Under the pieces are notes generated by a model. It was not told where the DNA came from. It saw only the letters and a list, made by a program, of their open reading frames with translations, and did no database searches. A program made the position numbers and the translations under genes. Positions 7,662 to 43,893 of a DNA stretch of 64,000 nt are shown one piece after another (position 1 is the stretch's first letter; the number at the start of each line of letters is the position of its first letter). This stretch comes from a bacterium (lineage in GTDB: Bacteria > Babelota > Babeliae > Babelales > UBA12409): assembly GCA_021823685.1 (NCBI GenBank), contig JAKANL010000003.1:18189-82188 (forward strand), in the 5' to 3' direction.

Positions 7662-7676
7662 GCTCTTTGAATATGT

Positions 7677-7752: not shown

Positions 7753-7756
7753 AACC

Positions 7757-7841
7757 TGGTGGTGAGGGTAGGATTTGAACCTACGAAGGCAGAGCCAACG
7801 GATTTACAGTCCGTCCCCTTTGACCGCTCGGGAACCTCACC
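7757..7841 (-). tRNA. tRNA-Tyr (anticodon GUA), long variable arm
   Basis: rc reads GGTGAGGTTCCCGAGCGGTCAAAGGGGACGGACTGTAAATCCGTTGGCTCTGCCTTCGTAGGTTCAAATCCTACCCTCACCACCA. Loop is CT-GTA-AA. It has a class II extra arm. Confidence 0.9.
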
Positions 7842-21921: not shown

Positions 21922-22089
21922 ATGAAGAAATATGTGCCATGGATTGTTGTTGTCGGCCTTTTGATTGCCGGCCTTACGGCTTGGTACGTCTACAGTGCGG
22001 GTCATCCAACAATACAAACACCTACGTGCCCTACAGGGTCATCATGTCCTGAGGTTATAAAAGAGGCTAGGGATATGTCCGGAGTATAG
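21922..22089 (+). CDS. mini membrane protein, tandem paralog 1 (55 aa)
   Basis: ATG after AAAGGAG gives MKKYVPWIVVVGLLIAGLTAWYVYSAGHPTIQTPTCPTGSSCPEVIKEARDMSGV. Below the ORF-track size cut-off; translated manually. Confidence 0.5.
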   Translation: MKKYVPWIVVVGLLIAGLTAWYVYSAGHPTIQTPTCPTGSSCPEVIKEARDMSGV

Positions 22090-22131
22090 CCATCTGAAGA
22101 GTCATAGAAAAAATGTTATTAGGAAAATCGT

Positions 22132-22320
22132 ATGAAGAGATATTTACCATGGCTTGTCGCCATCGGCCTCATAATCGCCGGCGCTACGGTTTGGTACGTG
22201 TACAGCGATGCCACGAGCAGTGAAAGCACGCCAACAAAAACAAAACAATGCTCGGGATGCCCCAAAACTGAAACCGAAGATGAAGTTATAAAAGTGACTG
22301 AGGCTATATCCCCAATGTAG
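22132..22320 (+). CDS. mini membrane protein, tandem paralog 2 (62 aa)
   Basis: MKRYLPWLVAIGLIIAGATVWYVYSD...CSGCP...EVIKVTEA. The same leader AGAAAAAATGTTATTAGGAA.ATCGT precedes paralogs 2 and 3. Confidence 0.55.
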   Translation: MKRYLPWLVAIGLIIAGATVWYVYSDATSSESTPTKTKQCSGCPKTETEDEVIKVTEAISPM

Positions 22321-22357
22321 CCGAAGGGTCACAGAAAAAATGTTATTAGGAAGATCG

Positions 22358-22474
22358 TTGAAGAGATATTTACCATGGTTCATCGCGATTGGGCTTATCA
22401 TCGCCGGCGCCACGGTTTGGTTTACGGTCAACAACATAAAAAAATCCGATCATCCAACCGTGCAGACCGGATAA
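22358..22474 (+). CDS. mini membrane protein, tandem paralog 3 (38 aa, TTG start; possibly decaying)
   Basis: LKRYLPWFIAIGLIIAGATVWFTVNNIKKSDHPTVQTG. The start context CGTTGAAG versus CGTATGAAG in paralog 2 suggests a 1-nt loss that destroyed the ATG. Confidence 0.35.
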   Translation: MKRYLPWFIAIGLIIAGATVWFTVNNIKKSDHPTVQTG

Positions 22475-22511
22475 AAAGGTAGCATAAGCTAAAATGTAAA
22501 AACCCCTTTTC

Positions 22512-22598
22512 GGCTGGCTCAAGTTGGTCGAATCTGGCGCGCAAGAAATCACGATCGAAAGCCAGGATGACGAGCACTACACGATAACGGGAAAATGA
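22512..22598 (+). pseudogene. 3' remnant of an EndoU-immunity-family gene
   Basis: GGCTGGCTCAAGTTGGTCGAATCTGGCGCGCAAGAAATCACGATCGAAAGCCAGGATGACGAGCACTACACGATAACGGGAAAATGA is near-identical to the last ~85 nt of 26420-26785 (…WLKLVESGAQEITIESQDDEHYTITGK*). There is no upstream ORF. Confidence 0.75.
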
Positions 22599-22615: not shown

Positions 22616-23761
22616 TTAATTCGGCCTGGTCCCCTCGCCCAGGATAGTAAGATATCGCGCATACACAAATCGCCGCCCACGTTTTTTACCGGTAATTTCT
22701 TTCAAGATCCCGATTTTTTCAAATTGATTGATCAGATTTGAAGCCGCTTGATGAGAAAGCTTAAATTCACGCTGTACATCGCTAACACGTATTAACGGCG
22801 TATAAAAAAGCTTATCTAATAACATGATTGCAAGCGGTGATGATATCCTTCTTTTTCCAAGCAGCGCCTGATGTGTTTCGCGTAACTGTAGTATGCGTTT
22901 AATGTTTTCAGTAGCATCTTGGCATGTTTGGATAACGCCAACCAAAAAAAACTCTACCCACTGCTCATAATCGCCTTTTTCGCGTACAAGCGTAAGCCGA
23001 TCATAGTATTCTTGACGATTTTTTTTCAAATAATAACTCAAATACAAAAGAGGCTTTTTAAGAATGCCACGCCAATAAAGATAAAACGTGATAAGTAAGC
23101 GTCCCAACCGTCCGTTGCCGTCCAAAAAGGGGTGGATGGTTTCAAACTGATAGTGAATCAACGCGCAGTTGATCAGTTCCGGCATCACCGATTTTTTATG
23201 CATGTATACTTCAAGATCGCCCATGGCTTTTAACGCCTCAGCTGGCGTTGGCGGAACGTAACGAGCCGTTTTCATGGTACAGCCAGGAGCTCCGATCCAA
23301 TTTTGTATTTTTTTAAATTCGCCGGGTGTCTTTTCTGCGCCGCGTACACCCTTAAGCAAAATCGCATGCAACTCTTTGATAAGCTTCAGGCTCATAGGTA
23401 ATGAATCGAGTCGATCGATACCATAGTGAAGCGCTTTAATATAATTTACAACTTCGACAACATCATTGACGTTTTCAAGCTTGGCACCACTTTCGAATTC
23501 AAAGACGTCTTCAAGCGAGGCTTGCGTACCTTCGATCTGGGCGCTCAATAATGCTTCTTTTTTTACGTACATGGTAATAAAAAGATCGGTGTTGGGCAGG
23601 GCATAAGCCATACCGTCCAAACGTGCAAGATGGAGAGTCGCATCCCACAGAAGTTTTTGCATGTTCTCGTTAATATTAATCGCTGGATGCGGCGGCAAGG
23701 ATGTTGGTACAAAAGCCTTGAACCCAGCCGGTTGATTTACATAAATACCACTTCGATTCAT
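22616..23761 (-). CDS. Fic-family protein (AMPylase-type) with N-terminal inhibitory-helix motif and C-terminal wHTH
   Basis: 381 aa. Fic motif HPFLDGNGRLGRLL (HxFx[D/E]GNGRxxR). N-terminal SAQIEG fits (S/T)xxxE(G/N). The C-terminus looks like a winged helix. Confidence 0.9.
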   Translation of the reverse strand: MNRSGIYVNQPAGFKAFVPTSLPPHPAININENMQKLLWDATLHLARLDGMAYALPNTDLFITMYVKKEALLSAQIEGTQASLEDVFEFESGAKLENVNDVVEVVNYIKALHYGIDRLDSLPMSLKLIKELHAILLKGVRGAEKTPGEFKKIQNWIGAPGCTMKTARYVPPTPAEALKAMGDLEVYMHKKSVMPELINCALIHYQFETIHPFLDGNGRLGRLLITFYLYWRGILKKPLLYLSYYLKKNRQEYYDRLTLVREKGDYEQWVEFFLVGVIQTCQDATENIKRILQLRETHQALLGKRRISSPLAIMLLDKLFYTPLIRVSDVQREFKLSHQAASNLINQFEKIGILKEITGKKRGRRFVYARYLTILGEGTRPN

Positions 23762-24056: not shown

Positions 24057-26423
24057 GTGAAGCGATTGGGAATATTTTTTGCACTTACCGTGCAAGGGTT
24101 GGGGGCAATAAATAGCGAAGTACAATGGCACGATCTTCAAGATTTTTGTATGGGTTTACGGGAAAGTCCTTCGCCCATAAAAGTCCAGTCGAGAAACGAA
24201 TTTGTTGATGGTGGTTCGGCGCTTATTGATTGGGTTGTTCGGCAACATGATTACGGACCTGTAGATTACGAAAATTTTCAAAGCTCACCGAGCGAACAAA
24301 CTTCTTCGCAGAAAGATACTGCGTCACCAACAGATTCCGTTCAGCCCCTAGGCGGGAGGCCCCGCTTCGCTCAAGCTTCCGCCTTCGCTAAAGCTACTGC
24401 GGACAAGATGGCGGACAGGTCTCCGGGCAGCCAGCGATTGACCCCGAAATCCCCCGCTCACTGTTTGAAAAAACTCTCCACTCACAAAAAACTCTCCGCT
24501 CACACTGAGCTTGTCGAAGTGTGCCCATCTTCTCGCCCAGGGCAACACCCGCAGGGCAAGACCCAAAATTTAAAAAATGTTAAAAAAGCTGCAGTTTTCA
24601 AAAGCATGCTCCAACAAAGTAGTAGTATTTCGCAAGTCAAATTGCTTTATACAAACTACTGTTCGCAACTCGATAACCATTTGCTCAATCCAGCCAACTA
24701 CCAGTTGATCGATAAGCGCGTTCGTGCGCTCAAAGCAACGCTCGATCATCCGGGCCAGATTCAGGAGCGAAACATAAAATTTTCAGCGCAAGAACGAGCC
24801 GAGCTTTTAAAATCTGGCGTATCGGCGGCAGCTCTCGCCTCTCTGCGTGGCAGTGCCGCGCAGCTTGAACTGCACGAAGAATACACGTCCGTCTTTGAGC
24901 AATGGGCACAAAAGAGCCACGAAATCCGACGCTCGCTCGTGCAAGAAAGTATTGCGCAGATAACATTACAGTTTGCTGATCTTGCCGATGAATGTAATCG
25001 TAGCAATAATCTTGCTGGCAGTTACGCCATGGCCGACGTTATGCACGCGGCGTGGCAGAGTGTGCAAGAATTTTTTACGCTGGCCAAAGCGACAGCACAG
25101 GTCGATTACGAAGTTCTGGGCATACTGGGCGCAAGCGCGCTTGACGGAGCTCTCTGTGCCGGCTGTTCAACGGCGCAGGCGATCAGCCATCCGGTTCAAA
25201 CGCTCAAGGCTCTTGGCTCAACAATTGCGCGCGTAGCATATACGGCAGATATTTTGCTCGGTAATGATAAGCAGCGCAGTGCCCAAACGCGCGCTGAACT
25301 TTATGCCATGCTCAAGGCAGCAGCCAACGAATTGTCTGCCAAAGCACAATCCCAACACCCCCTCATGACGTTCAGTGACTGCGTATCCGGCGGCACGCAG
25401 TTTGTTGCCGAAGGCGTATTGGCTTCCAAATGCATGACGCTATCAGCAAACGTTCTGAGCAAAAGCGCACAAGCACTTAACAAACTTCCTGAACTGGCAA
25501 AAACAGCCGGCACCAAAATCCGCTTGCCCCTCACCGGCCCACAACGCGAACTGGCTCTTGCGCACGCCCAGGCAAGTATAGGTGAGGGATTTATTGAGGA
25601 AATGGCCCGCGCACAGACAGGTATTAGCGGAGCCCGGCGTAGCCCGATCGTAGCCACGCCCAGCCGTCGCCAAGGGCTATGGCGGGCACGGGTCGAAGAG
25701 GGGCGAAGACGGGTGCTCAAGCAAGAGCAAGAGGCGGTTCAAAAGATACCGGCTCAACAGGCTACTCCAAACGCTTCTGCCGGTTTACAATCGCAAAAAC
25801 CGTCTGCCCAACCGACGACGCCAGTTTCTCCTTCCGGTTTGCAGCCAGCCGTGCCGGGAAAACCGTCGGTTACCACCGCTTTTCCCGGGCCGTTACCAGC
25901 GCCGGGTACCCAGCAACTGCTCAAAGTGTTTGCCCTGCCAGAGCAGCAACGTGCGGCAATTATTGCGCGATACGGCAAACCCATTCCAGAAATTGGTGGC
26001 GGACAATTTAAAAATCCGCTTCACTTAATTGCGATTGATGTGAGAAAAATTGATCAAAAAACGGGTATTGTCAAAGAGTGGATGGGTTTTCACCATGATT
26101 ACCAGCATGTGTTTGAACGTAACAATGTGATTACCTTAACCGAAAAACAAAATTTGGGCGGAGGATTTTACAAAGCAAAACCAATATATGGCACGCAAAT
26201 TCCGAAGTGGAAATCGTTTTTCCCTGCCGAGTGGCCACCGGAAAAGGTTTTTGAAAAGGTTATCGAAGCACACAATAATATAAAAGATATACTGCCTGCG
26301 AGGGGTGGCAGGAAAGAATTAATTGGTTGGCTTGAGCATGAACAAAAAGCAATATCGATTATCGTTGATGACAACAAAGATATTATTACCGCATATCCGA
26401 ATTTTTCTTACCGAGGAAGATGA
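24057..26423 (+). CDS. Sec-signal polymorphic-toxin-like protein with EndoU-like RNase C-terminal domain (copy 1)
   Basis: GTG start after GGGGAG. Signal-like MKRLGIFFALTVQGLGA. The C-terminal ~170 aa read ...PLHLIAIDVRKIDQKTGIVKEWMGFHHDY...KSFFPAEWPPEKVFEKVIEAHNNI...ISIIVDDNKDIITAYP. This fits my memory of the bacterial EndoU nuclease toxin pattern (HIL.G...G.H...K..FP..W....I......I.VV.....I.TAYP). No Rhs/YD, LXG, PAAR or haemagglutinin repeats recognised. Confidence 0.75.
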   Translation: MKRLGIFFALTVQGLGAINSEVQWHDLQDFCMGLRESPSPIKVQSRNEFVDGGSALIDWVVRQHDYGPVDYENFQSSPSEQTSSQKDTASPTDSVQPLGGRPRFAQASAFAKATADKMADRSPGSQRLTPKSPAHCLKKLSTHKKLSAHTELVEVCPSSRPGQHPQGKTQNLKNVKKAAVFKSMLQQSSSISQVKLLYTNYCSQLDNHLLNPANYQLIDKRVRALKATLDHPGQIQERNIKFSAQERAELLKSGVSAAALASLRGSAAQLELHEEYTSVFEQWAQKSHEIRRSLVQESIAQITLQFADLADECNRSNNLAGSYAMADVMHAAWQSVQEFFTLAKATAQVDYEVLGILGASALDGALCAGCSTAQAISHPVQTLKALGSTIARVAYTADILLGNDKQRSAQTRAELYAMLKAAANELSAKAQSQHPLMTFSDCVSGGTQFVAEGVLASKCMTLSANVLSKSAQALNKLPELAKTAGTKIRLPLTGPQRELALAHAQASIGEGFIEEMARAQTGISGARRSPIVATPSRRQGLWRARVEEGRRRVLKQEQEAVQKIPAQQATPNASAGLQSQKPSAQPTTPVSPSGLQPAVPGKPSVTTAFPGPLPAPGTQQLLKVFALPEQQRAAIIARYGKPIPEIGGGQFKNPLHLIAIDVRKIDQKTGIVKEWMGFHHDYQHVFERNNVITLTEKQNLGGGFYKAKPIYGTQIPKWKSFFPAEWPPEKVFEKVIEAHNNIKDILPARGGRKELIGWLEHEQKAISIIVDDNKDIITAYPNFSYRGR

Positions 26424-26785
26424 TGAAAAAACTGGTATTGGTCGATAGCGAGCATGGCTACTGGAAGACGAAAGAAGATTTTGATGATGATATGGATCTT
26501 TTAAGAGCATTTCTGAATAGCAATCCAGTGCCTGACCTAAAAGAGTTTCTTGACGATCTCAATAAAGATTGGGAATTCGGGGGGGGGGATCTTGTAAATT
26601 TTGAACGTCATGATGGCCAAATAACGTTGGGCTATGATTTTGAGGACGACGGACACAAATTTACGATCAAAGAAAGTGAACTCGAAAAACTTATCATCGA
26701 CTGGCTCAAGTTGGTCGAATCTGGCGCCAAAGAAATCACGATCGAAAGTCAGGATGACGAGCATTATACGATAACGGGAAAATAG
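26420..26785 (+). CDS. candidate cognate immunity protein (copy 1)
   Basis: 121-aa ORF whose ATG overlaps the toxin stop (ATGA). Acidic. Paralogs sit in the same position after toxin copies 2 and 3. No family recognised. Confidence 0.7.
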   Translation: MMKKLVLVDSEHGYWKTKEDFDDDMDLLRAFLNSNPVPDLKEFLDDLNKDWEFGGGDLVNFERHDGQITLGYDFEDDGHKFTIKESELEKLIIDWLKLVESGAKEITIESQDDEHYTITGK

Positions 26786-26789
26786 AGGG

Positions 26790-27025
26790 CGCGTGGGGGC
26801 ACCCTTCGATGAAGCGCATATCGCGCGGAATCTCGTCGCAACCTAGGACCGCACCAACGATCTACCTGCGTAGCCCGAGCGTAGCTTTAGCGTAGACGGG
26901 CGTAGGTGAACCCAGCCGTCGCCCATGTGAGCTATGGCGCCAGCCAGGCGTAGCTTAGCATTTCTTCGAAGAAATACCTGCGTAAGCGAAGACTGGCGCG
27001 CAGGCAGGATGAGCGGAGGAACGTG
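26790..27025. repeat. GC-rich palindromic intergenic repeat cluster, copy R2
   Basis: Starts right after the immunity stop. GCACCCTTCGATGAAGCGCATATCGCGCGGAATCTCGTCG parallels 58967-59015. GAACCCAGCCGTCGCCCATGTGAGCTATGGCG is the rc match of 15371-15406. Ends with GGATGAGCGGAGGA. Confidence 0.65.
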
Positions 27026-27136
27026 CAAAACAAAGCCCCATGTTGTCATGAGGCTCGATTAATTTATTTATTAAATTATTGCAAATTGGATTATATGCAT
27101 GTTAGGCTGAAAGTAAGTTTAAAAGAGGAGAACAAG

Positions 27137-27265
27137 ATGAATAGGTATGTATTACTTAGCCTGTTTGCTGCAATCTTTGTTACGGCTTTAGCAGACAGAA
27201 AATACGTCTGTAAGGTGGTTAGGGACCGCGTTGTATGCGTATACGATCCCAGCGCTTCCAGCTAA
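27137..27265 (+). CDS. small secreted peptide candidate (42 aa)
   Basis: ATG 7 nt after AAGAGGAG gives MNRYVLLSLFAAIFVTALADRKYVCKVVRDRVVCVYDPSASS (signal-like, then a Cys-containing tail). Part of track ORF 27023-27265. Confidence 0.4.
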   Translation: MNRYVLLSLFAAIFVTALADRKYVCKVVRDRVVCVYDPSASS

Positions 27266-27440
27266 GTTTCTCACCCCGCTCGTTGAGCTTCGAAAAACAG
27301 ACAAGTGCGAAGTAGGGGCCTGTTTGCCGCAATCTTTGTTACGGCTTCAGTTAAAGCATTTCTTGTCGACCTGTTCTGCGAAGCTTTTTACTCCGCTCGC
27401 TGAGCTTCGAAAAATAGGCAAAAGCGAAGCAGAAAGATAT
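27255..27440. repeat. GC-rich palindromic intergenic repeat cluster, copy R3
   Basis: Two units of ...CCGCTCG(T/C)TGAGCTTCGAAAAA(C/T)AG... (27275-27300 and 27379-27417). Also a duplicated fragment of the small-peptide gene (GCCTGTTTGCCGCAATCTTTGTTACGGCTTCAG, about 27318-27350). Confidence 0.65.
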
Positions 27441-27539
27441 TGAGGCTAAAGACCAACAACAAGGCACCCCTACGTCGGCTATGGGCGCATCACCTAAGGT
27501 AAAGAGCTGTATTGGCCTTCCGTGGGAATGCTAAAGTCG

Positions 27540-28730
27540 TCAGGGTACAACCACAGCCAGCAGTCGATCCCTCACTGGATTGGGGATGTTAAGAGCTTGA
27601 CGCGTTTGATCTGATGGATGCTGAAATGTCTGTTGAACCCCATTGATGGCCGTATGCGCTGAGTACATGTTAAAAAACAAGGACAGAAGCGTATTTTTAA
27701 ACTTCTTGGCAGCGCAATGTCCTGGAACTATGTTACGAATAGTCAATTCGTCTGTAGCGCCCCATAAGCCAAAAGAAACCGCCAAACGACCTGCGGCATT
27801 GCCGTACTTCCGGGTAACTTCTTCCGCCCGTTCACCGCTCGCAAATGATACGAGCGATGCTATCGCTTCGTTATCCAACATGCAATACCCAACATATGAC
27901 GTCCCGCCTGATACTGCTGCGAGTGCGAGCAATTCTGCCGTATCGGTTAGGCCTGTTCTGTGCTTACGGAACCAATTTTTGATTTTACCGAGGCACGTTT
28001 CGGGAACGATAACGCCGCTTGGCTCTTTGCCCTTGTCTAGCGCAGCTACTGGCTGCTTTAACTTGGCCAATTCTTGGACCGTCAACCCACTTTCTATATC
28101 CAGCTCCATCAGCGGCCCAACAGCTTGGGACTCTCGCTCTTTTTCAGCCGCCTTGGACGCCACTTCTTGCGTCAAAATACCTGTGGCTTGTGTGTCAAGC
28201 GTTTGCTTAGATTTTTCAGTACCCAACCTGCCAGGATACAATTTTTCACAAGGCCCATCTGCCGCAGTCAATAAATCTTTAAGTTGCTCTTTAAGGCTTT
28301 TTGGCGTTGGCGAATCCGAATCTGATGACGAGTTAAGCGGCGATTCATACGGCGGCGAATCTGAATCTGGCGGTGAATCTGAGCCTGATGAAGAGTAAAG
28401 CGACGGTTCGTACGGCGGCGAATCTGAACCTGATGAAGAGTTTAGTGGCGATTCGTATGGCGGCGAATCGGTTGCCAACGAACCAGCGTCTGATGAAGAA
28501 CTTGAATATCTTTGATCTGGCGATTGACTTCGTGGCGTTGATAACCCAGCCTTTTCCAGAGCGTCTCTCAGAGGAAGATTTTTAGTCTCCATTGCATATA
28601 AACAACTATTGATTACTGCTACCCCCACCAAGACTTTCAGCATATCTTTGCATCTGATCATGATACACCTGTACTTTCCGCAATCCCCAGGTTTAATACT
28701 CTTAATTTCCATTGTACTCTTTTTTTTCAT
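27540..28730 (-). CDS. hypothetical secreted protein with Ser/Pro tandem repeats and hydrophobic C-terminal domain (family member 1)
   Basis: 396-aa ORF. Probable start at M30 (28643), giving MLKVLVGVAVINSCLYA. Repeats SDSPPYE(S/P)(P/S)L(N/Y)SSSGSD. The C-terminal hydrophobic region resembles that of the three genes downstream. Confidence 0.6.
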   Translation of the reverse strand: MKKKSTMEIKSIKPGDCGKYRCIMIRCKDMLKVLVGVAVINSCLYAMETKNLPLRDALEKAGLSTPRSQSPDQRYSSSSSDAGSLATDSPPYESPLNSSSGSDSPPYEPSLYSSSGSDSPPDSDSPPYESPLNSSSDSDSPTPKSLKEQLKDLLTAADGPCEKLYPGRLGTEKSKQTLDTQATGILTQEVASKAAEKERESQAVGPLMELDIESGLTVQELAKLKQPVAALDKGKEPSGVIVPETCLGKIKNWFRKHRTGLTDTAELLALAAVSGGTSYVGYCMLDNEAIASLVSFASGERAEEVTRKYGNAAGRLAVSFGLWGATDELTIRNIVPGHCAAKKFKNTLLSLFFNMYSAHTAINGVQQTFQHPSDQTRQALNIPNPVRDRLLAVVVP

Positions 28731-28855
28731 TTTGTCAAGTTTTTTAGAGCATAAAAGCGCTTTTTATCGCTCTTTTTAGGCTCTCTATTTCAAAAATTTG
28801 TTTATATTCCCCGCTCAATTTAAGCCTTCAGAGCTCTATTTACACCACATTGTTT

Positions 28856-29761
28856 TTAAGCCGCATGCTCTTTTGCCTGCGCAATTCTTCGCTCAAGCGC
28901 GGGCAGCAGCTCTTTTACATGAACTGCCGATGAAAGCCTCAGCATACGCTGGGTAATCGACAATCGATTATGCTGATCTTGCGCGCTCAGACGCTCAAAA
29001 TCAGGAAAATAGGTCTGCCAAAGCATGGTCAATGGCGGCATCGTATTCGAATGATCTTTGGCAAGATTAAAGTATTCTGAACACAGCCTAAGAAATGCTT
29101 GCTGCTCAGGCACGGGCCAGCAACTAATCGTATCATAGAGCACGCGCAACTGTGCCCGACGGTAATATTCATTGGCAACGCTCGCGCTCCCCAAACAAAC
29201 CATGTAAAGCCACAAATAGCCCGTATCTGGCAATTGAAAGCCAAGAGCGCGGTAATAGTTAAGCGCTACGTCGACGGGAATCTCAATGGCACAAGCAAGC
29301 ACAACCTTCCACAATGGCCAACGATCACCAGGCCCGAAGGCGGTCGCCGTTCCGGTGGCAATGGAGGCAAGCTGTGGAAACTCGGTGTTACCGCCCCACC
29401 ACACCTCAGTATTGATACCAAAAGTAGCCGTAGCCAGTAACGCCGTCTCCAACGCATTACGCGCTGGCTCACTCAGCCGCCACCATGCGCGGCTAACGCC
29501 TCTTCCGCACGATTGGCAGCCATGCCACAACCCAAGACACCAGCGAACTGGAGCCGCGTGCTGCTGCAGCACAACGGGGCGCTCTTCTTCCATTTGTTCG
29601 ATCGATTGCGCATCAGCAAGTAAATGGCTCGTTAATGCCACTTGACGATCACTCGACATACCAGCGAGCTGATTTATGAGGCCAACACACAAAAACGCGT
29701 ATAATAATTTTTTGCTCAACATGATAAACCTTTCTTCAACGACCGTTTTAACGTCTCGCAT
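28856..29761 (-). CDS. hypothetical secreted membrane protein (family member 2)
   Basis: 301-aa ORF; probable start at 29722 (MLSKKLLYAFLCVGLINQLAG). Central block ...SRAWWRLSEPARNALETALLATATFG...IEIPVDVALNYY... aligns with 31719-32753 (...DSWRGLSQGTRNTLVVSILLATTLA...IEVPVDVTTNWF...). Confidence 0.6.
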   Translation of the reverse strand: MRDVKTVVEERFIMLSKKLLYAFLCVGLINQLAGMSSDRQVALTSHLLADAQSIEQMEEERPVVLQQHAAPVRWCLGLWHGCQSCGRGVSRAWWRLSEPARNALETALLATATFGINTEVWWGGNTEFPQLASIATGTATAFGPGDRWPLWKVVLACAIEIPVDVALNYYRALGFQLPDTGYLWLYMVCLGSASVANEYYRRAQLRVLYDTISCWPVPEQQAFLRLCSEYFNLAKDHSNTMPPLTMLWQTYFPDFERLSAQDQHNRLSITQRMLRLSSAVHVKELLPALERRIAQAKEHAA

Positions 29762-31331
29762 GAACCGATAAATACCCAGGTTCTGGAGAATTTTTCGCTG
29801 TTCCCGATGAGCTCCCTGCCGAGCTCGTAGCGCCTTCAGCAGAAGGCGTAATCACGATTTGTGGCGCATCGGCACTGGTTAATCCACATGACTCTTTTTT
29901 AAGTACAATGTCGGACAAGTCTTGGTTCGCTGCTGCTAAATCAAGGCGTTGATCCACCATGAGCTTAATGCCAGCCTGCACAAGTTCGGCATATCGCACT
30001 CGCTCAACGTCACTCCAATTTTTAAAGTCACCAACAAAAACCAGGCAAATCGCCGACGTCATCGTAAAATCGATTTGACTAAGCGCTGGCACACGCGTCC
30101 CCTTAACAATCTCCAACAGATCTTGCGTGATAGGAGCTTGCTGAGCAAGCGCCTCAAATCCCAACGCACCACGAAACTTTGCGTAATGTGCAAAATCGTC
30201 AGTTGGATCGGAAAACTGTTGAATACGATTCAATAATTCGACGACAATTTTTAAATGATACCTTTGTCCCGTTGCATCTTGGCTTCCAAACGGATCCCAT
30301 ATACGCAAACAAGTATCATACAAAGCGCTGAGCGATTCTTTCCCATCGGTAGCAATAAACTTTTTCATCGATTCAGGAGTAGGGTCGCTTGGTAGCGCAT
30401 CAATAACGGTTTTGAGTTGTTCAAATGTTGTACCACTGTTGTATAGCTGGTCCAAACACCACACAAAAAGCTCGACAAAGTTTACCTGCATTTCCTGCGG
30501 GAAGCGCTGTATTTGAGGATCATTGGAGCAAAAGGCAACAACATCCTGCCAAAGCTCTTCCTGGGTCAATTGGCTATTTTGATGAACGCGTAAATAGGCG
30601 GCAAGCATATCAGCAAAGAGGTCCTTTTCAAAACCAGCATTGTAATAGGCATTGAAGGGAATGCGATAGCCGCGGCGAACACGCAATTCATTGAACATGA
30701 TCGCGACAGCCGTCGAAAGTGCATATAACGAGACTAGACCGGTTTTTCTGTATTCATTTTTAAGAGCATCAATCTGAGAACACATATATACGTCTCCGGC
30801 AATTACCCCGCTGCAAATAAGGAGCTTGAGCCAGAAATTATATCGATCAGTAATATTAGCCGCTGCTTTTCCCATCAAAATCGCGGCACTCATTGAGATA
30901 CCGCTGCGATTGACGGCATGCGCTAAAACGTTAGCACCCACTTGAGCGGTTGTTATCCCCAGCGTTAAAAGAACATCTTTTGCCCATCGCGGCAATTTTT
31001 GCACATATACCGAACAGCACCCGGGCTCTTCTTCGCGTACCCCGCCAGCCTGCCCAGCAACTGGGCTCATTGACGAACTGGCAGCGGCCGGCGCAGATGG
31101 CCCAGCGGGCGAACCAGAATCAGAAGACATCTCGCCCATTTCAACAGCGCAAGGCGCGGCTAAAAGCGATTGTTTGAGTTCTTTCTGACGTGCAATAACT
31201 AATTTTTCTTTGCCATCATCGCGCTCCATACCGATCAAAGGCATAAAGGCCAGACACAACATGGCGTATAAGACATGACGAGAATTCATAGTACCTCCAT
31301 TAAGTACTTCTTTAGCTACCATAATCCCCAT
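29748..31331 (-). CDS. hypothetical secreted membrane protein (family member 3, long C-terminal extension)
   Basis: 527-aa ORF. The N-terminus MGIMVAKEVLNGGTMNSRHVLYAMLCLAFMPLIGMER is near-identical to that of 31719-32753. Hydrophobic middle. No family recognised. Confidence 0.65.
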   Translation of the reverse strand: MGIMVAKEVLNGGTMNSRHVLYAMLCLAFMPLIGMERDDGKEKLVIARQKELKQSLLAAPCAVEMGEMSSDSGSPAGPSAPAAASSSMSPVAGQAGGVREEEPGCCSVYVQKLPRWAKDVLLTLGITTAQVGANVLAHAVNRSGISMSAAILMGKAAANITDRYNFWLKLLICSGVIAGDVYMCSQIDALKNEYRKTGLVSLYALSTAVAIMFNELRVRRGYRIPFNAYYNAGFEKDLFADMLAAYLRVHQNSQLTQEELWQDVVAFCSNDPQIQRFPQEMQVNFVELFVWCLDQLYNSGTTFEQLKTVIDALPSDPTPESMKKFIATDGKESLSALYDTCLRIWDPFGSQDATGQRYHLKIVVELLNRIQQFSDPTDDFAHYAKFRGALGFEALAQQAPITQDLLEIVKGTRVPALSQIDFTMTSAICLVFVGDFKNWSDVERVRYAELVQAGIKLMVDQRLDLAAANQDLSDIVLKKESCGLTSADAPQIVITPSAEGATSSAGSSSGTAKNSPEPGYLSVHARR

Positions 31332-31520
31332 AGTTATATCCTAACAAATATATTCAATTTGTCAACCAATACAACAAAATAATTCAAAATAAGCAAAATA
31401 AGTAATGTATATTTTTATCGCCAAGATTAAGTATGAAAGAGGCTAAAAGATTGTCAACAAGGGGAAAAACGACTGTCATAGCAACGTGATAATGTCATAT
31501 TCACTGCAACAGAAAATATC

Positions 31521-31691
31521 ATGAGAAAATTGATGCTTGAGCATGGATTGCCTGTTGGCTTTTATACCAATCGAGGGTCTGTCTTCAAGGTTTACCCTTT
31601 GGCTCCAAAGTGGCGCTTACAGTCTCAAAATGAGCTAAGGACGCCTAAAAATGATTTTCTCATAAAAAAGCCGCGGTTTGCCGGAGCTTAA
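31521..31691 (+). pseudogene. possible DDE integrase/transposase core fragment
   Basis: A 56-aa ORF MRKLMLEHGLPVGFYTNRGSVFKV... The G.P..FYT(D/N)RGS.F string resembles the rve integrase-core block. It is an isolated fragment. Confidence 0.3.
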
Positions 31692-31718
31692 CAGCTTGTA
31701 AAGACTTTAAAAAACGCA

Positions 31719-32753
31719 TTAAACCGCTTGCGCAGATTGCGCTTTAACTAATTTTGCTTTCAATACTTCTTGAAGCTTTGGTATCGCACCTAGATCCCTC
31801 CACGCAATGACCTTTTCTACTTGAAGACTCGCGCGATCAAGATCACGGACTTCCCAGCCAAAAGCGCGCGCATCTTCTTGATAGAGTGAACGAATAGCGG
31901 CCACTCGTTGCGTAAGGGTTGCGGGTGTACGATCATCACGCTCAATCTTTTGGAGCGCATCAATTACTTTAGGCGCCACGCTTAAGGCCAAGGCCAATTC
32001 GCGCAATGTCCATCTGCGTGCTTCGCTCACCGCTTCGCGTTTATTTTTTTCAACCATTATGCTTGAAAGGCCAGTAAGTCCCATCGCCACAGCAAGAAAA
32101 CCAGTGTGCGGACAATGCATCTGCCCAGCGCGCGCTAAAAACCAATTAGTTGTCACGTCAACAGGCACTTCAATGCCAACCGCTAAGGCTTTGCCCCAAA
32201 AGGCATATTTTGCCAGTGGGCCATAACCCATAGCAACGCCCGTTGCGGCATGAATAAGCGCGGGCACCAACTCATTGCCCCCAAATGCATCCTCTGCCGA
32301 CGCTGCTAATGTGGTAGCTAAAAGTATTGAGACAACGAGGGTGTTTCGCGTTCCCTGCGATAAGCCGCGCCAGGAATCGGTGATATGGTTCCCGCACGAA
32401 TGCATACTTTCTCTGACACGCTGCCAGCAGCTTGGGCTTGGCCGAGCGGCATCACGATGCACCACGACAATCGGCGTTTTGGTCGGAGAAGATTCAACAA
32501 CGCTCGTATTAGGCATAGCTAAAGCGGCAGATGGTGCAGCAGCACCAGAACCCATGTCGCTCATTTCAACAGCAGGCGCTGCTAAAAGAGGCCTTCTAAA
32601 TTCGCTCGCCCAACCGGACTTTTTGCCCTTGCTATCGAAACGCTCCATGCCGATTAATGGCACAAAAGCCAGACAGAGCATGGCGTATAAGACGTGACGA
32701 GAATTCATCGAGCCTCCATTTATGAATACTTCTTTAGTTCCAATAATTCCCAT
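31719..32753 (-). CDS. hypothetical secreted membrane protein (family member 4)
   Basis: 344-aa ORF with N-terminus MGIIGTKEVFINGGSMNSRHVLYAMLCLAFVPLIGMER. Paralog of 28856-29761 and 29748-31331. The upstream ~130 nt are also duplicated. Confidence 0.65.
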   Translation of the reverse strand: MGIIGTKEVFINGGSMNSRHVLYAMLCLAFVPLIGMERFDSKGKKSGWASEFRRPLLAAPAVEMSDMGSGAAAPSAALAMPNTSVVESSPTKTPIVVVHRDAARPSPSCWQRVRESMHSCGNHITDSWRGLSQGTRNTLVVSILLATTLAASAEDAFGGNELVPALIHAATGVAMGYGPLAKYAFWGKALAVGIEVPVDVTTNWFLARAGQMHCPHTGFLAVAMGLTGLSSIMVEKNKREAVSEARRWTLRELALALSVAPKVIDALQKIERDDRTPATLTQRVAAIRSLYQEDARAFGWEVRDLDRASLQVEKVIAWRDLGAIPKLQEVLKAKLVKAQSAQAV

Positions 32754-32894
32754 AGATACATCCTAATAAAATATTCAATTTGTCGGTTTAGAATCGGATT
32801 TAATTTAAAATAAGCAAAATAAATAATGCGTTTTTTGCTCCAACGTTAAGTATGAAAGAGGCTAAAATATTGTCAATAACTGGCCAAACGACCA

Positions 32895-33070
32895 GAATTT
32901 GCGAAAGCCACCCAAGCCGGACATTCTTCGCCATACTACGGCGGGCAGGCTTGGCCAAAGCGCATGTATAATGGGCGGCTGCGAAGTGCCAACAGGCCTG
33001 CCCGGTGAAGCTTTTACTCCGCTCGTCGAGCTTCGAAAAACAAGCAAGCGAAGTCGGGCGCGAATGCCAA
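32895..33070. repeat. GC-rich palindromic intergenic repeat cluster, copy R4
   Basis: Contains TGAAGCTTTTACTCCGCTCGTCGAGCTTCGAAAAACAAG (33007-33044), the same unit as 27379-27417 and rc 15412-15450. Confidence 0.65.
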
Positions 33071-33277: not shown

Positions 33278-34435
33278 GTGGTGAAGTGGGCAGTAGTATT
33301 TGCGGCCTTAAGTACCGCCAAGTGTTTGTTGGGAGATGGATTTTGCGCAGGGACGCATGTTAAAACGCCTGGTGGTTATGCCGCGATTGAACAGATTAAA
33401 CAAAAAGATCTCATTATTGGTTTTGATGCACGGCTCGGCGTATGCGCACCTTGCATCGTAAATGCGATTAACAAAAAACGTGTGAATCAAGTTATTAGGC
33501 TGACCACTGGGGGGCAAGAGCTCTATGTTGGATGCCAGCAGCGATTTTTGTGCCTGAACCAAAGAAGAAATGATCTGAAGCGCTGGTTGATTTGGACAAA
33601 GGTGCGTGATCTTAAACGGGGTATGCGGCTATTGAGCGCGAATAAAATCAGCGTTTGTGTTGATACCGTTCAGCGTATGGCCAGGCCGATAGATGTATAT
33701 GAGTTAAGTGTAGCTGGGGCGCATACGTATATTGTAACTGAACATGATCTTGTTGCGCACAATGTCGCTCCCATTGTAATTCCCTTTGTTTATACCGTCG
33801 GAGAGGGCGTAACAATTGCCTGGGGAGCTGCGGCGGCGTTGCTTGGATATGCGACGATCCATCACGCTGTAGGAAACCGCTGTGATACGTCAGGATTATG
33901 CGGACCACACACGGTTGATGAAATACAAAATCATCAGGACAATTGGAGTCGCTTAGTCCGCGAGCGAACGATCAGCGCTGATCGTTCTAAACTGCACTTG
34001 TGCTATGGTGGCAGTAATGGAGGGCCAGATCGCAATAATAAGTCGCCATGTAATCCCAATAAGGGAAAAAATAAAAATCCTCAGCAGCCATCGGATCCGA
34101 ATAATGCGCGTAATAAAAATCAAAGGCAAGGGCCGAAAAATGTAAACTCAAGACAAGTTGCTGCCAAAGAACGTAAATTTAATACGATGGAAAGGGCGGA
34201 GGTTTTTCGGAAAGGTAAATTTAAGCAAGACTATAAAACGTGCAAAAACGGCCGTTATGTAAAAAAAACCGGTGTCGAAGGATTTGGGAAAAGAGCGCAA
34301 TATTTAGAGTGGGATAATTTTCATAAAGATATGGAAATGTATGATAAATTTGGCCGGCATCAAGGATGTATAGAGCCGATTACTGAAAAAATATATAAAC
34401 CAGCCGTACCTGGCCGAACGATTAATGTAAGGTAA
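33278..34435 (+). CDS. Hint-domain polymorphic toxin with colicin-E3-like 16S rRNase C-terminal domain
   Basis: 385 aa. Signal-like N-terminus, then Hint blocks GFCAGTHVKTPGGYAAIEQIKQKDLIIGFD ... YELSVAGAHTYIVTEHDLVAHN, then a hydrophobic segment and an Asn/Lys/Pro-rich linker. The C-terminus ...KRAQYLEWDNFHKDMEMYDKFGRHQGCIEPITEKIYKPAVPGRTINV aligns with the colicin E3 end ...KIYEWDSQHGELEGYRASDGQHLGSFDPKTGNQLKGPDPKRNIKKYL recalled from memory. The D, H and E of the catalytic WD..H...E string are retained. Confidence 0.8.
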   Translation: MVKWAVVFAALSTAKCLLGDGFCAGTHVKTPGGYAAIEQIKQKDLIIGFDARLGVCAPCIVNAINKKRVNQVIRLTTGGQELYVGCQQRFLCLNQRRNDLKRWLIWTKVRDLKRGMRLLSANKISVCVDTVQRMARPIDVYELSVAGAHTYIVTEHDLVAHNVAPIVIPFVYTVGEGVTIAWGAAAALLGYATIHHAVGNRCDTSGLCGPHTVDEIQNHQDNWSRLVRERTISADRSKLHLCYGGSNGGPDRNNKSPCNPNKGKNKNPQQPSDPNNARNKNQRQGPKNVNSRQVAAKERKFNTMERAEVFRKGKFKQDYKTCKNGRYVKKTGVEGFGKRAQYLEWDNFHKDMEMYDKFGRHQGCIEPITEKIYKPAVPGRTINVR

Positions 34436-34438
34436 TGT

Positions 34439-35647
34439 ATGAAGAAAATCGACATTCTGGATAAATTGTACAAAAAAATGATCACGCAGAGAGAGGCTGA
34501 GGCCATTTATGTAGACGTTTTTGATAAATTCAATCGAGGGATATTAAAAACTGATCCGGTAAAACTTTTATGTTTATCCCATAAAGAGAAAATTGCGATT
34601 CGGCTGCATGATATATCGCTTAAAGTCTTGGCAAAATGGCGGTATGAGGGTTGGCCAAAAACCTGCGCCATTTGCGATAAACCTGTGGCGATAGGAAAAG
34701 TTGATTGGTGCGTCTTTGAGCGAAAGAAAATTGGCGGTAAAATGCGCAGCGAGGTGGTTATGCATGGGGATTGTTACTCAGCAATGCCCACCCCGAAAAA
34801 GGCATCGCAAGATCTCTACGAGATTTTTGATCGAGCGTGTGCGAAGGCCTCTGATGAACGATTGATGCGCCTTTTAGCGCGATTTAAAAAAATGGATTAC
34901 CTTGCAGCTCCCATCATTTTTGATCTCATTTGTGCAAAAAGAATCAGAGTTCTTAAATTATTGCATGAGCAACACGTACCATTTTCTTATTTGGCTTCTT
35001 CTGGTGGTAACGCACTTCACGCCGCCTGTGGCATTTCAGGCAGCCTTGAGGCGGTAAAATTTTTAATCAAAAATAATATTCTTACGGATATTAATGCCGA
35101 ATGCGATGATGGAGAAACGCCATTTCTTTTGGCTGTGATGTACAATCACATGGATATTGTTGAGTATTTTTTTGAACATTTTACTCCGAATGTAACCATT
35201 TCCACACTTCATGGTGATACACCGCTTTCACTTGCCAAAAAAAATGGCAACACACTATTATACGCTCTTATCACAGCGCATTTGCCAGAAACAAGTACGC
35301 CGATTTTAAAATTAAGTAGAAATGAGCTCAAACACGCTTTCGAAGGTGTATTGGCCATATTAATCGACGACGACATAAAGGAAATTGAATTTCCGGACAG
35401 AGCAATCTATTTTTGTCGGATCTTGAACAAAAAAGATGAAAATGACGGCTCGCCCGAATCAAACATTGTTGGATCATTAAGCGAAGATATGGCATCGCTT
35501 AAAGAAAGTATACATGGTAAAAAAGGATGGTTTGAATTAGACATCGAACGCTTTGGAGCGATACTTCTTGCACTTGGTGCACGAGTAAAAAGTACATATC
35601 CCAAACGCAGAGCACGGGTGTCTGGGCGTAAGATTGACGTGAGATAA
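34439..35647 (+). CDS. ankyrin-repeat protein; candidate immunity partner of the E3-like toxin
   Basis: 402-aa ORF starting 3 nt after the toxin stop. Middle ANK repeats (GGNALHAACGISGSLEAVKFLIKNN...DGETPFLLAVMYNHMDIVEYFF...HGDTPLSLAKKNGNTLL). The N-terminal ~130 aa are unassigned and carry C..C/H..C pairs. Confidence 0.75.
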   Translation: MKKIDILDKLYKKMITQREAEAIYVDVFDKFNRGILKTDPVKLLCLSHKEKIAIRLHDISLKVLAKWRYEGWPKTCAICDKPVAIGKVDWCVFERKKIGGKMRSEVVMHGDCYSAMPTPKKASQDLYEIFDRACAKASDERLMRLLARFKKMDYLAAPIIFDLICAKRIRVLKLLHEQHVPFSYLASSGGNALHAACGISGSLEAVKFLIKNNILTDINAECDDGETPFLLAVMYNHMDIVEYFFEHFTPNVTISTLHGDTPLSLAKKNGNTLLYALITAHLPETSTPILKLSRNELKHAFEGVLAILIDDDIKEIEFPDRAIYFCRILNKKDENDGSPESNIVGSLSEDMASLKESIHGKKGWFELDIERFGAILLALGARVKSTYPKRRARVSGRKIDVR

Positions 35648-36138: not shown

Positions 36139-37236
36139 ATGAATTTTCGTATTTTCTTTTTAGCGGCCGGCTTGTTTTTTGCTCCGGCGATGGGCATGTT
36201 TAAGTGTTGCATGTCCAGAAAACGTGCGGCCGATTATCACTCATTTGATTCGGCGACGCCATTAAGGGCCGAGCGTGCTGAACAGCCTCAGGCGAATATT
36301 ATTGTATCTACTCATGTCAAGCCTGATTTTACAAAAATGTTAGCCATTGTGAGAGCATTGTTCCCAAGAGCAGATACCCCTACAGCACTTAATTATGTAA
36401 AAATTCTAGCCTCGGGGCGGACTCAGCCTGTGCCAGTGTTTACTAAAGCGTTGATACCCTGCGAGCTCATATTTGGCAAATCGATTGCTGTTCGTTCTTC
36501 CGTTACTCACAACTATGGCAGCCCGGCGGTAAGCGCTGCGGCGTTGACCGCTGAGCAATGGAGAAAAATTGATATTGCTCTTGTGGAAGAGGGGAGAGAT
36601 GCCGCGTTGGCAATCATTATGAGTACCGGTGTCGATGTTGATGAAGCTGATCGCATACTTGTACAAATTGGCAAACAGCCACTCCGCGCACGATCAACCC
36701 CCCCACAAGCACATGCTGAAAGAAATTCTGACATAGAAAAATTAAATCAGCTTTATTCGGAAGGTTCGGCCGCTAAACCAGAAACGCGGGCATCCACTGC
36801 AAGGCGTGCGCCGTTGACTGCGGAGCAGTTGGCAAAAATTGAGGCTGCCCTCGCGAAAAATAACGCGGATGATGCGCTAGCCATTATTATGAGTGCTGGT
36901 ATCGGATTTGAGGAAGCTGACCGCATGCTTGCGCAAATAGGCAAAGAGCCAACTCGCACACCATCAATGCCGCTACGAGCACACGCTGGGGGAAGTTCAG
37001 GCATAGAAAGTGATCAGCTTTCTCGAGAAAGTTCGGCTGGCGGGTCCGAAACGCGGGCATCCACTGCAAGGCGTGCGCCACTGACTGCCGAGCAGCTAAC
37101 AAAAATTGAAGCGGCTCTCACTGAAAGTAGCGTAGACGCTGCATTGGCCGGCATTATGAACGCTGGCATCGAATTTGAAGAAGCTAACCGTATGCTTGTG
37201 CAAATGGGCAAAAAGTCGGTTCAGCCATTGTCATAG
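36139..37236 (+). CDS. hypothetical secreted protein with three ~75-aa tandem repeats
   Basis: 365 aa with signal-like MNFRIFFLAAGLFFAPAMG. Repeats LTAEQ(W/L).KI(D/E)-AL...DAALAIIMS.G...EEADR(I/M)L.QIGK occur three times (about 36535-36700, 36805-36950, 37085-37215). Confidence 0.6.
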   Translation: MNFRIFFLAAGLFFAPAMGMFKCCMSRKRAADYHSFDSATPLRAERAEQPQANIIVSTHVKPDFTKMLAIVRALFPRADTPTALNYVKILASGRTQPVPVFTKALIPCELIFGKSIAVRSSVTHNYGSPAVSAAALTAEQWRKIDIALVEEGRDAALAIIMSTGVDVDEADRILVQIGKQPLRARSTPPQAHAERNSDIEKLNQLYSEGSAAKPETRASTARRAPLTAEQLAKIEAALAKNNADDALAIIMSAGIGFEEADRMLAQIGKEPTRTPSMPLRAHAGGSSGIESDQLSRESSAGGSETRASTARRAPLTAEQLTKIEAALTESSVDAALAGIMNAGIEFEEANRMLVQMGKKSVQPLS

Positions 37237-38229: not shown

Positions 38230-38241
38230 TCAAGTTAACCG

Positions 38242-38610
38242 CTATTTTCCCGTTATCGCGTAGTGCTCGTCATCCTGACTCTCGATGGTAATCTCTTTTG
38301 CGCCCGATGCGACGAGCTTGAGCCAGCCGATCAAAATCTTTTCAAGCTCACTTTCTTTGATGGTGAATGAGGGCCCATCTTCTTCGAATTCGTAACTTAG
38401 CTTTATATAACCATCATGGCGTTCAAGAGTAATAAGATTTCCTCCAGCAGAATCCCAATCTTTATTTTTTTGTAAGAACTCGAGGCTGTATTCGAGAAAA
38501 TCGGGGCAATCACCAACTAAAAATAGCATTAAAAATCCAAAGCCCGCTTCAGGCTCTTCTTTGGGTTTCCAATAGCCCGACTTACTTTCAAATAGAACCA
38601 TTTTTTTCAT
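38242..38610 (-). CDS. candidate cognate immunity protein (copy 2)
   Basis: 122-aa ORF with ATGA overlap with toxin copy 2. Its C-terminal half is near-identical to copies 1 and 3; its N-terminal half is diverged. Confidence 0.7.
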   Translation of the reverse strand: MKKMVLFESKSGYWKPKEEPEAGFGFLMLFLVGDCPDFLEYSLEFLQKNKDWDSAGGNLITLERHDGYIKLSYEFEEDGPSFTIKESELEKILIGWLKLVASGAKEITIESQDDEHYAITGK

Positions 38611-43253: not shown

Positions 43254-43883
43254 ATGTTTGCCGATCGCGCAGATGCCGCTGGCCAATTGACAGCGCTTAT
43301 AATCGAACAGGTCAAAACTAAAAATGCCGTTGTGCTCGCCGTCCCCCGAGGCGGATTGCCCATCGGTGCTGCAGTAGCAACCGCTCTCAAAGCTCCCCTT
43401 GACGTCATACTCACTAAAAAAATTGGTGCACCAGGCAACCCCGAGTTTGCCATCGGCGCCGTAACTGAGCACGGATATTTTGTTGATCCGGCATACGATA
43501 CGCAGGAACTCGGCAGCTATTTACGCACCGAAATTGAACGTATCCAAAAACTGCTGGCAAAACGCGCACACCTCTATCGTCAGGACCGCCAGACTCCAAC
43601 TTTACGCGATAAAGTGGTCATTATCGTTGATGATGGCGTCGCAACCGGACGTACACTCATCGCAGCCCTTAATGATATTGCGCAGCAGCAGCCGGATCAT
43701 GTTATTATCGCAACACCAGTTATTACTCCCGATGCCCGCGAATTATTACACGATCATGGTGCGCGCGTTATCAGTGTCCTAACACCAGAACACTTACAAG
43801 CTATCGGACAATTTTACTACGATTTCTCCCAGGTAAGCGACGAAGAAGCCATGCGTATTCTTCACGCATACCAACAAAGGTAA
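43254..43883 (+). CDS. type I phosphoribosyltransferase-domain protein
   Basis: 209 aa. ...VLAVPRGGLPIGAAVA... and the PRPP-binding loop VVIIVDDGVATGRT. Confidence 0.8.
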   Translation: MFADRADAAGQLTALIIEQVKTKNAVVLAVPRGGLPIGAAVATALKAPLDVILTKKIGAPGNPEFAIGAVTEHGYFVDPAYDTQELGSYLRTEIERIQKLLAKRAHLYRQDRQTPTLRDKVVIIVDDGVATGRTLIAALNDIAQQQPDHVIIATPVITPDARELLHDHGARVISVLTPEHLQAIGQFYYDFSQVSDEEAMRILHAYQQR

Positions 43884-43893
43884 GGAGCAATCG

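Follow-up and report, generated by a model that had tools for sequence, protein, structure and literature searches.

Four consecutive minus-strand genes, named A to D, were found to encode one family of paralogous proteins in a 64,000-nucleotide (nt) stretch of contig JAKANL010000003.1 (assembly GCA_021823685.1, forward-strand positions 18,189 to 82,188). This stretch is referred to as the window, and positions are given in its coordinates. As read from their sequences, the proteins share the order of a predicted Sec-type signal peptide, a variable linker carrying a short motif, a Lys/Arg- and Cys-rich segment and a putative helical domain of approximately 150 amino acids (aa). We give about an even chance to the reading that they are Sec-exported modular proteins, possibly secreted by the type II system; their export, final location and function are what we infer. 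The domain, the motif and the tandem and multi-domain organisation have no prior description in the libraries and literature searched.

A first-pass annotation of the window, made without database searches, had placed the genes at 27540-28730 (A), 28856-29761 (B), 29748-31331 (C) and 31719-32753 (D), and consecutive minus-strand maximal open reading frames (ORFs) are present at these positions in the ORF listing. The likely start of each gene, judged from sequence features, is internal to the maximal ORF.

31719-32753, minus strand: gene D, maximal ORF of 344 aa; likely start at 32708 (MNSRH, 329 aa, equal to P0001)
29748-31331, minus strand: gene C, maximal ORF of 527 aa (equal to P0003); likely start at 31289 (513 aa)
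28856-29722, minus strand: gene B in its 288-aa form
27540-28661, minus strand: gene A, 373 aa according to NCBI (equal to P0004), alternative start at 28643; divergent family member

The sequence GGAGG is located 4 nt 5' of the MNSRH ATG in both C (31289) and D (32708), and the start at 32708 is the one used in a database entry (P0001, 329 aa). For B the likely start is 29722, and gene callers likewise give a product of 288 aa. As this start lies 25 nt past the stop codon of C, a C-B operon is suggested. The likely start of A is 28661 or 28643; the copy in a relative was called from MLKALVG.

The relationship among the four proteins was examined by pairwise and profile comparisons. BLASTP related B to D with E=1e-21 (36% identity over 122 aa) and B to C with E=2e-7. 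Over their ~70 N-terminal aa, C and D are 65% identical, with one residue differing between the signal-like segments; these are the two members for which near-identical N-termini had been noted (MNSRHVLYAMLCLAF[MV]PLIG). No link of A to B, C or D was obtained by pairwise BLASTP. Profile A7, built from foreign "canonical" members only and containing no window sequence, matched C (2.8e-10), A (9.6e-10), D (4.1e-7) and B (1.3e-4); it matched nothing outside the family among 988 ORFs, read in six frames from the window and the retrieved loci. Since all four window proteins are recovered by this profile, the proposed four-member family is statistically real, and A, which this foreign-only profile also matches, is a genuine though divergent member. 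The corresponding values for profile A4 (hmmsearch) were 1.3e-53 for B, 1e-49 for C, 5.5e-45 for D and 2.1e-9 for A.

The family is very rare and appears to be lineage-restricted. Its distribution, which had been suggested as a check, was surveyed by exhaustive HMMER comparison of a B/C/D core profile with 1.84 billion cluster representatives; eight proteins were found at E<=1e-3, three of them self or orthologue matches and five new (P0006 and P0007 to P0010). P0006 is a protein of 661 aa with three tandem copies of the domain (E=5.5e-19). Tandem paralogue pairs are located on contigs L019, L022 and L025, and on L024 a weaker partial copy (E=0.0016) lies directly upstream of the family member. 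A contig scan of 185,579 species-representative genomes revealed no relative of protein B, and word-indexed searches with the window proteins returned self or orthologue matches only. A degenerate DNA pattern for the conserved peptide GR[KR]NxF[ST]EDF[RK]xxP identified only the P0006 contig and one chance hit (L028) among JGI metagenome contigs, and nothing in viral contigs.

In agreement with the first reading of the sequence, no known family was recognised. The four proteins had no match in Pfam, NCBIfam or PHROGs (none at E<=0.1 in Pfam and NCBIfam), 16 domain sequences yielded nothing consistent in these libraries either (for Pfam, at E<=1), and the family profile and the C-terminal region of C gave only noise at E>0.1 against PDB sequences.

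The conserved domain and the C-specific region that follows it were located as follows.

31983-32435, minus strand: conserved four-helix domain of D, 151 aa (hmmsearch envelope; all-helical in the AlphaFold 2 (AF2) model)
30579-31049, minus strand: conserved four-helix domain of C, 157 aa (hmmsearch; translation checked)
29060-29533, minus strand: conserved four-helix domain of B, 158 aa (hmmsearch; all-helical in the AF2 model)
27555-28001, minus strand: conserved domain of A, 149 aa (hmmsearch, profile positions 10-150), at the C-terminus of the protein
29751-30578, minus strand: C-specific C-terminal region, 276 aa, with a homologue detectable only in the orthologue P0002 and no Pfam or PDB-sequence match

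The consensus of the domain is W..L.R..KD..E..GL.G...Y....GN...P.L..YA.G..AA..T.R..YY.K.L, a variable stretch, and M..VH..F.EY...GR.N.F..DFR.LP..LQ. One Gly is invariant, and GxxxG-like motifs are found in the helices. The C-terminal helical regions of B (67 aa), C (276 aa) and D (87 aa) are unrelated to each other. A variable helical C-terminal domain, which had been claimed for every member, is therefore present in B, C and D, while A ends with the conserved domain (27555-28001).

The AF2 model of the D domain contains long helices, with a mean predicted local distance difference test score (pLDDT) of 57. The model of B residues 58-288 is all-helical, with a mean pLDDT of 66.6 (70-87 over the core) and a predicted template modelling score (pTM) of 0.55. 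Foldseek comparison with PDB and BFVD gave nothing significant, the best E values being 1.2 and 0.24 and the TM scores <=0.28. The non-significant matches include the alpha-pore-forming toxins AhlC and MakA (E>4, TM<0.2). These matches, together with the predicted export of an all-alpha, weakly hydrophobic domain encoded in a toxin-rich island, could indicate membrane-damaging alpha-helical toxins or bacteriocin-like proteins, which would be exported in soluble form and insert their hairpins into target membranes. This seems very unlikely to us: no significant structural or sequence match was obtained, the domain is without the strongly hydrophobic central hairpin of colicin or ClyA-type toxins, no immunity-like small membrane protein is adjacent, and four paralogues with differing tails fit adaptors better.

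The N-terminal parts of the proteins contain the following features.

32649-32708, minus strand: signal-peptide-like N-terminus of D, MNSRHVLYAMLCLAFVPLIG; the predicted cleavage leaves Met-Glu; apparent free energy of membrane insertion (ΔGapp) -0.0 for aa 6-24
28309-28477, minus strand: acidic Ser/Pro-rich tandem repeats of A, SPPYESPLNSSSGSD-like, with a 45-nt period
28086-28100, minus strand: strict linker motif DIESG of A, ~30 aa upstream of the domain
31134-31148, minus strand: relaxed linker motif AVEMG of C; strict (DVEMG) in the L004 orthologue
32559-32573, minus strand: relaxed linker motif AVEMS of D

The N-termini of the family consist of a basic n-region, a hydrophobic h-region of ~15 residues and small residues at -3/-1, with ΔGapp of 0 to 1.4 over 18-19 aa. 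Met directly follows the predicted cleavage position ([GA]|M) in 10 of 12 members, A to D included; examples are PLIG|ME, QLAG|MS and CLYA|ME. Lipoprotein signals were considered and rejected, as no lipobox precedes the N-terminal Cys residues.

The linker is variable and in A consists of acidic Ser/Pro-rich 15-aa repeats, the number of which differs between strains; fewer are present in the A-like N-terminus of L004. The motif D[IVL]E[MSA][GQ] occurs nine times in 12 proteins, compared with 0.05 expected from shuffles (maximum of 2 in 2000). A search of 44 window ORFs (14,266 aa in all) for a relaxed form gave matches in A, C and D only; B has a degenerate form, SIEQM. In P0006 the motif is situated between the domain copies, and in P0009 the relaxed form DIEMA follows the single domain. 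Because the distance between motif and domain varies from ~10 to 80 aa, the motif behaves like a linear motif in a disordered linker. N-myristoylation of the "MG" of the motif was rejected, positions 3-6 being off the consensus. Between linker and domain lies the amphipathic Lys/Arg-rich segment, with a net charge of +2.9 and usually one to four Cys. The plan that had been described for the four proteins was thus recovered: the N-termini are Sec-like, the linkers are variable, and a junction with Cys residues is followed by a conserved helical block.

The helical block had been described as paired hydrophobic segments, and the strings quoted for it are present in the translations (ALETALLATATFG and IEIPVDVALNYY in B; TLVVSILLATTLA and IEVPVDVTTNWF in D). 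A conserved block is indeed found, but it consists of four low-charge helices of modest hydrophobicity. According to column statistics the four segments comprise 14-20 residues, of which 31-50% are Gly, Ala, Ser or Thr, and their mean Kyte-Doolittle values are 1.0, 0.46, 0.98 and 1.09. On the biological hydrophobicity scale the 19-mer sums of the window members are +3.1 to +5.5, compared with 2.9-5.1 for MurA and -2.4 to +1.4 for membrane anchors encoded in the window. With a position-dependent ΔG predictor, for which 19 Leu gave -7.5 and 3 Leu/16 Ala gave -0.1, the ΔGapp values (kcal/mol) were +1.2/2.0/2.9 for D, +2.7/2.0/1.6 for B, +1.0/1.7 for C and +2.0 for A. Control values from the window were 1.3-2.9 for soluble proteins (MurA, Fic and a peptidase) and -1.8 to -2.7 for true anchors; the two calculations agree. 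Conservation was not significantly correlated with hydrophobicity or with helical moments.

Krampen et al. reported ΔGapp ranges of 2 to 4 for soluble proteins and -2 to -5 for single-span transmembrane proteins (PMC6110835). Transmembrane-domain (TMD) effectors of type III secretion systems (T3SS) peak at -1 in that study, and those of type IVB systems (T4BSS) range from -3 to +2. By comparison the window proteins fall among the soluble proteins or at their margin; the lowest value of each member, 1.0-2.0, is at the upper edge of the TMD-effector range and overlaps the soluble controls. The helices of the window members are not transmembrane-grade. Of the checks that had been proposed, structure prediction gives an all-helical block (AF2), and the ΔGapp values (+1.0 to +2.9) speak against transmembrane segments.

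As the helices are too weakly hydrophobic for stop-transfer, the proteins would be translocated whole across the inner membrane by Sec. Their site of action would be extracytoplasmic: the envelope, or a host reached by type II secretion or by release in vesicles. The conserved helical module may be a scaffold, or a unit for membrane association, that the members have in common, with specificity residing in the variable linkers and tails.

The genome is that of an uncultured bacterium of the Dependentiae (TM6). Its MurA is 58-63% identical to the proteins of Dependentiae (TM6)/Babeliales metagenome-assembled genomes (MAGs) and of a complete 'Candidatus Dependentiae' genome, with other named taxa at <=44%. 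Members of this phylum are widespread parasites of protists. To our knowledge, little is known of their host-manipulation machinery past counts of ankyrin proteins and signal-peptide ORFans. Type II secretion components, with gspD in two copies, belong to the core gene set reported for the phylum, and no T3SS is named for it in the passages of PMC4776705 consulted. In the Dependentiae isolate Chromulinavorax destructans (C. destructans), signal peptides were reported on 44% of the coding sequences, enriched in ORFans, and regarded as host-manipulation candidates (PMC6561590).

Assembly GCA_027347085.1 and two read sets or assemblies contain identical sequence, and a literature search on the assembly and run accessions found no mention of them. 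In a related strain (L004), genes resembling C, B and A are arranged in this order as well. Between the window and this strain, dS (synonymous divergence) is 0.3-0.6, and the ratio of nonsynonymous to synonymous divergence (dN/dS) is 0.10 for B and 0.24 for C. These values indicate functional genes. The core domain is the most constrained part (dN/dS 0.06 in B and 0.15 in C), and the last 147 aa of C evolve fastest (0.42).

The first-pass annotation had compared the four proteins to the Inc-type effectors of vacuole membranes. In such a reading the helical hairpins would be inserted into the membrane of the bacterium-containing compartment, or into another host membrane, with the linkers and tails in the host cytosol. 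We regard this as unlikely. The intracellular lineage (PMC6561590) is consistent with it, as are the tandem arrangement of paralogues with variable tails and the variation in repeat number. Four low-charge helices, an even number, would place both flanks on one side, the Lys/Arg-rich ones included; Cys residues adjoin the first helix; and one helix of some foreign members has a ΔGapp of ~0 to 0.9, overlapping the secreted TMD effectors. Against it, the helices of the window members (+1.0 to +2.9) are indistinguishable from those of soluble enzymes, the N-termini are of Sec type and not of T3SS type in a phylum whose reported core set is as described above, and no similarity to the Pfam Inc families was found. 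We also know of no route by which substrates of Sec and type II secretion are inserted into host membranes as multi-pass proteins. Given the obligate intracellular type of the lineage (Dependentiae), the term 'effector candidate' is still reasonable; it is the analogy with Inc that the Sec-type N-termini and the soluble-range helices do not support.

Inc proteins are T3SS substrates of Chlamydiota and have a bilobed, strongly hydrophobic domain of 40-60 aa. Both they and the window family are paralogous families of intracellular bacteria, often clustered and without an enzymatic domain, and both combine paired low-charge helices with variable flanks that could face one compartment. The window family differs in its occurrence in Dependentiae, its Sec-type N-termini, its four helices of soluble-range ΔGapp and the lack of a Pfam Inc match. 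The resemblance is one of general logic only; in phylum, secretion signal, bilobed transmembrane-grade domain and sequence family, the defining features open to testing, the window family does not agree with Inc proteins.

The proteins might instead reside in the envelope or inner membrane, attached by an N-terminal signal or anchor, with the four helices as an integral or peripheral module and the variable parts in the periplasm. The probability of this arrangement is low, although high enough to be taken seriously. The core is under strong purifying selection, and in a distant relative a family gene lies beside a phosphoribosyltransferase-Prs gene pair (Prs 48.5% identical), which suggests old, vertically inherited genes; the helices are of low charge, with GxxxG-like motifs and one invariant Gly. 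The hydrophobicity of the window members is, however, too low for stop-transfer, and conserved Lys, Asp, Glu and His residues are located in or beside the helices. Cleavage of the signal peptide would also leave the Lys/Arg-rich flanks in the periplasm, contrary to the positive-inside rule. No homology to a housekeeping envelope family was found, and the near-absence of the family elsewhere (with no relative of protein B among the 185,579 species representatives) argues that it is not a housekeeping family.

Several points weigh against Sec export of modular proteins, which we nevertheless favour. The signal-peptide calls are heuristic, being derived from sequence reading and from a re-implemented ΔG calculation, which was checked by internal sanity tests and controls only. 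The confidence of the AF2 models is only moderate (pLDDT 57 and 66.6). In the foreign members P0010, P0007 and P0009 one helix has a ΔGapp of -0.1 to +0.9, as secreted TMD effectors of intermediate hydrophobicity do, and may therefore insert into membranes under some conditions. The even number of low-charge helices, kept in units of four in the three-domain protein, suits an integral membrane design. The exit from the periplasm is a step that we infer.

A bolder proposal is that of a new class of host-directed proteins in a phylum without injection systems. These would be exported by Sec and type II secretion and carry a four-helix module that inserts into membranes conditionally, as an analogue of the Inc proteins and TMD effectors, and D[IVL]E[MSA][GQ] would be a processing or host-targeting signal following the logic of PEXEL and RxLR. 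We consider this quite improbable. The TMD effectors of T3SS and type IV secretion systems (T4SS), such as SseF, SteD, Tir and those of Legionella (PMC6110835), have a hydrophobicity tuned below the threshold of inner-membrane retention, and a few foreign members of the present family have one helix with a ΔGapp of ~0 to 0.9. Those effectors peak at approximately -1 (T3SS) or range from -3 to +2 (T4BSS) and are delivered by dedicated injection machines, whereas the window proteins are at +1.0 to +2.9 and have Sec signals.

The family falls within a pattern already known from Dependentiae, that of signal-peptide ORFans specific to a lineage. The ORFans of C. destructans (PMC6561590) show the same phylum-level pattern and are likewise candidates for host manipulation; no such family was defined there, and the window adds a domain, a linear motif and a tandem and multi-domain organisation. 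The strain-variable acidic Ser/Pro-rich repeats of protein A recall, by description and with no sequence relationship expected, the repeat proteins of Anaplasmataceae. The tandem repeat proteins (TRPs) of Ehrlichia and the vacuole-membrane proteins of Anaplasma have acidic Ser-rich tandem repeats, are secreted by type I secretion systems or T4SS and are without this helical domain.

The family provides a concrete unit within the 'dark' secretome of Dependentiae, namely a predicted exported domain family with a conserved motif and with selective constraint that can be measured. Association of the module with host membranes, if it occurs, would show how anchored proteins reach host structures from a bacterium that has only Sec and type II secretion; as an envelope component, the module would mark a feature of the envelope specific to the lineage. 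It also cautions that blocks of low-charge helices beside signal peptides are not automatically Inc-like transmembrane hairpins.

The genes are located in a region rich in polymorphic toxins, with the following modules.

24057-26785, plus strand: EndoU toxin (788 aa) with a small downstream ORF in immunity-gene position (domain scan, repeats)
33278-34435: PT-HINT toxin with a colicin-E3-like 'Cytotoxic' domain, transcribed divergently from the family genes
38239-41042, minus strand: inverted EndoU paralogue module (811 aa) with a small downstream ORF; the EndoU gene itself is at 38607-41042

The two EndoU modules are 75-92% identical in nt sequence piece by piece (long arms 77-90%) and bracket ~11.5 kb containing the four-gene family, the PT-HINT toxin and an ankyrin gene. 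Their position raises the question of whether the four proteins are accessory, export or immunity proteins of the adjacent toxins (EndoU, PT-HINT/colicin-E3-like), and a link to toxin export or self-protection had been offered as an alternative in the first-pass annotation. Apart from the location between two EndoU toxin-immunity modules and next to the PT-HINT toxin, the observations speak against this role, which is most improbable. The toxins are nucleases, each with a small downstream ORF or an ankyrin gene in immunity position, and the family genes are divergent from the HINT toxin. The other family loci (L016-L027), on at least five contig types, have no toxin domain match.

An overlapping phosphoribosyltransferase-Prs pair is located at 43254-44742 in the window and at 1960-3542 on L016, the P0006 contig (42% and 48.5% identity), and this pair is the only synteny found. 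On L016 the family gene is 2.5 kb from the pair, with no toxin between, and in divergent orientation as in the window. The toxin linkage of the family is not conserved. From the adjacency on L016, the position of the family would be old, with the toxin/ankyrin block at 33-41 kb inserted beside it; being a single comparison, this is only suggestive.

Upstream of the family genes, the following features were observed.

32528-32892, minus strand: 5' cassette of D, ~140 nt of upstream sequence and the 5' ~230 nt of the ORF (repeat families)
31103-31473, minus strand: 5' cassette of C, paralogous copy of 32528-32892
28711-28738, minus strand: promoter-like TTGACA-16-TACAAT upstream of A, 11 of 12 positions, consensus match only

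The cassettes of C and D, of ~370 nt, are 76-86% identical in nt sequence and cover the signal peptide and the early linker; outside them the proteins have diverged to ~20% identity. Both contain the site TTGACA-16-CATACT, the number of such sites being not above that in shuffles. The promoter-like sequence of A is located within the 5' extension of its ORF. Just downstream of A, at 27023-27450, short segments are duplicated (33 nt at 94% and 55 nt at 80% identity), and they take in a small ORF whose start is signal-like (MNRYVLLSLFAAIFVTALA...). The 55-nt unit is found a third time upstream of D, at 33004-33058 (65%).

The Hint domain of the PT-HINT toxin begins directly after a signal-like N-terminus, a long delivery region being absent. 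An ankyrin-repeat protein of 402 aa begins 4 nt past the toxin stop codon (33278-35647 for both), and this spacing makes it a candidate ankyrin-type immunity protein. The 365-aa ORF at 36139-37236 has no family match and is internally repeated, with three units of ~203 nt (61-77% identical) at a spacing of ~267-270 nt.

At the edge of the toxin island, 22616-23761 encodes a protein of the Fic/DOC family that has a Fic_N domain and, C-terminally, a helix-turn-helix-like region. Next to it, at 22498-22596, is an orphan fragment of 99 nt that is 89% identical to 26685-26783, the 3' end of the small ORF downstream of EndoU, and 86% complementary to 38244-38330. Judged by sequence, this fragment looks like a remnant of a third toxin-associated module. 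Three tandem small ORFs (55, 62 and 44 aa) at 21922-22474 encode putative single hydrophobic-helix peptides with the N-terminus MK(K/R)Y(V/L)PW...IAG.T.W, their DNA repeats being 86-92% identical.

Elsewhere the window carries nusG-rplA-rplJ, atpG, murA and radA. A tRNA cluster (Tyr-Gly-Thr(TGT)-Thr(GGT)-Trp) is located at 7108-7841 on the minus strand, upstream of nusG-rplA-rplJ; with only ~150 nt between tRNA-Thr(GGT) and tRNA-Trp, the position that tuf occupies in many bacteria is without it. A MAG labelled 'uncultured Pseudomonadota bacterium' (CAYTCH010000002.1, L006) encodes a MurA 59% identical to that of the window, as in the Dependentiae MAGs and far above the value for other Proteobacteria (44%), and its label is therefore probably wrong.

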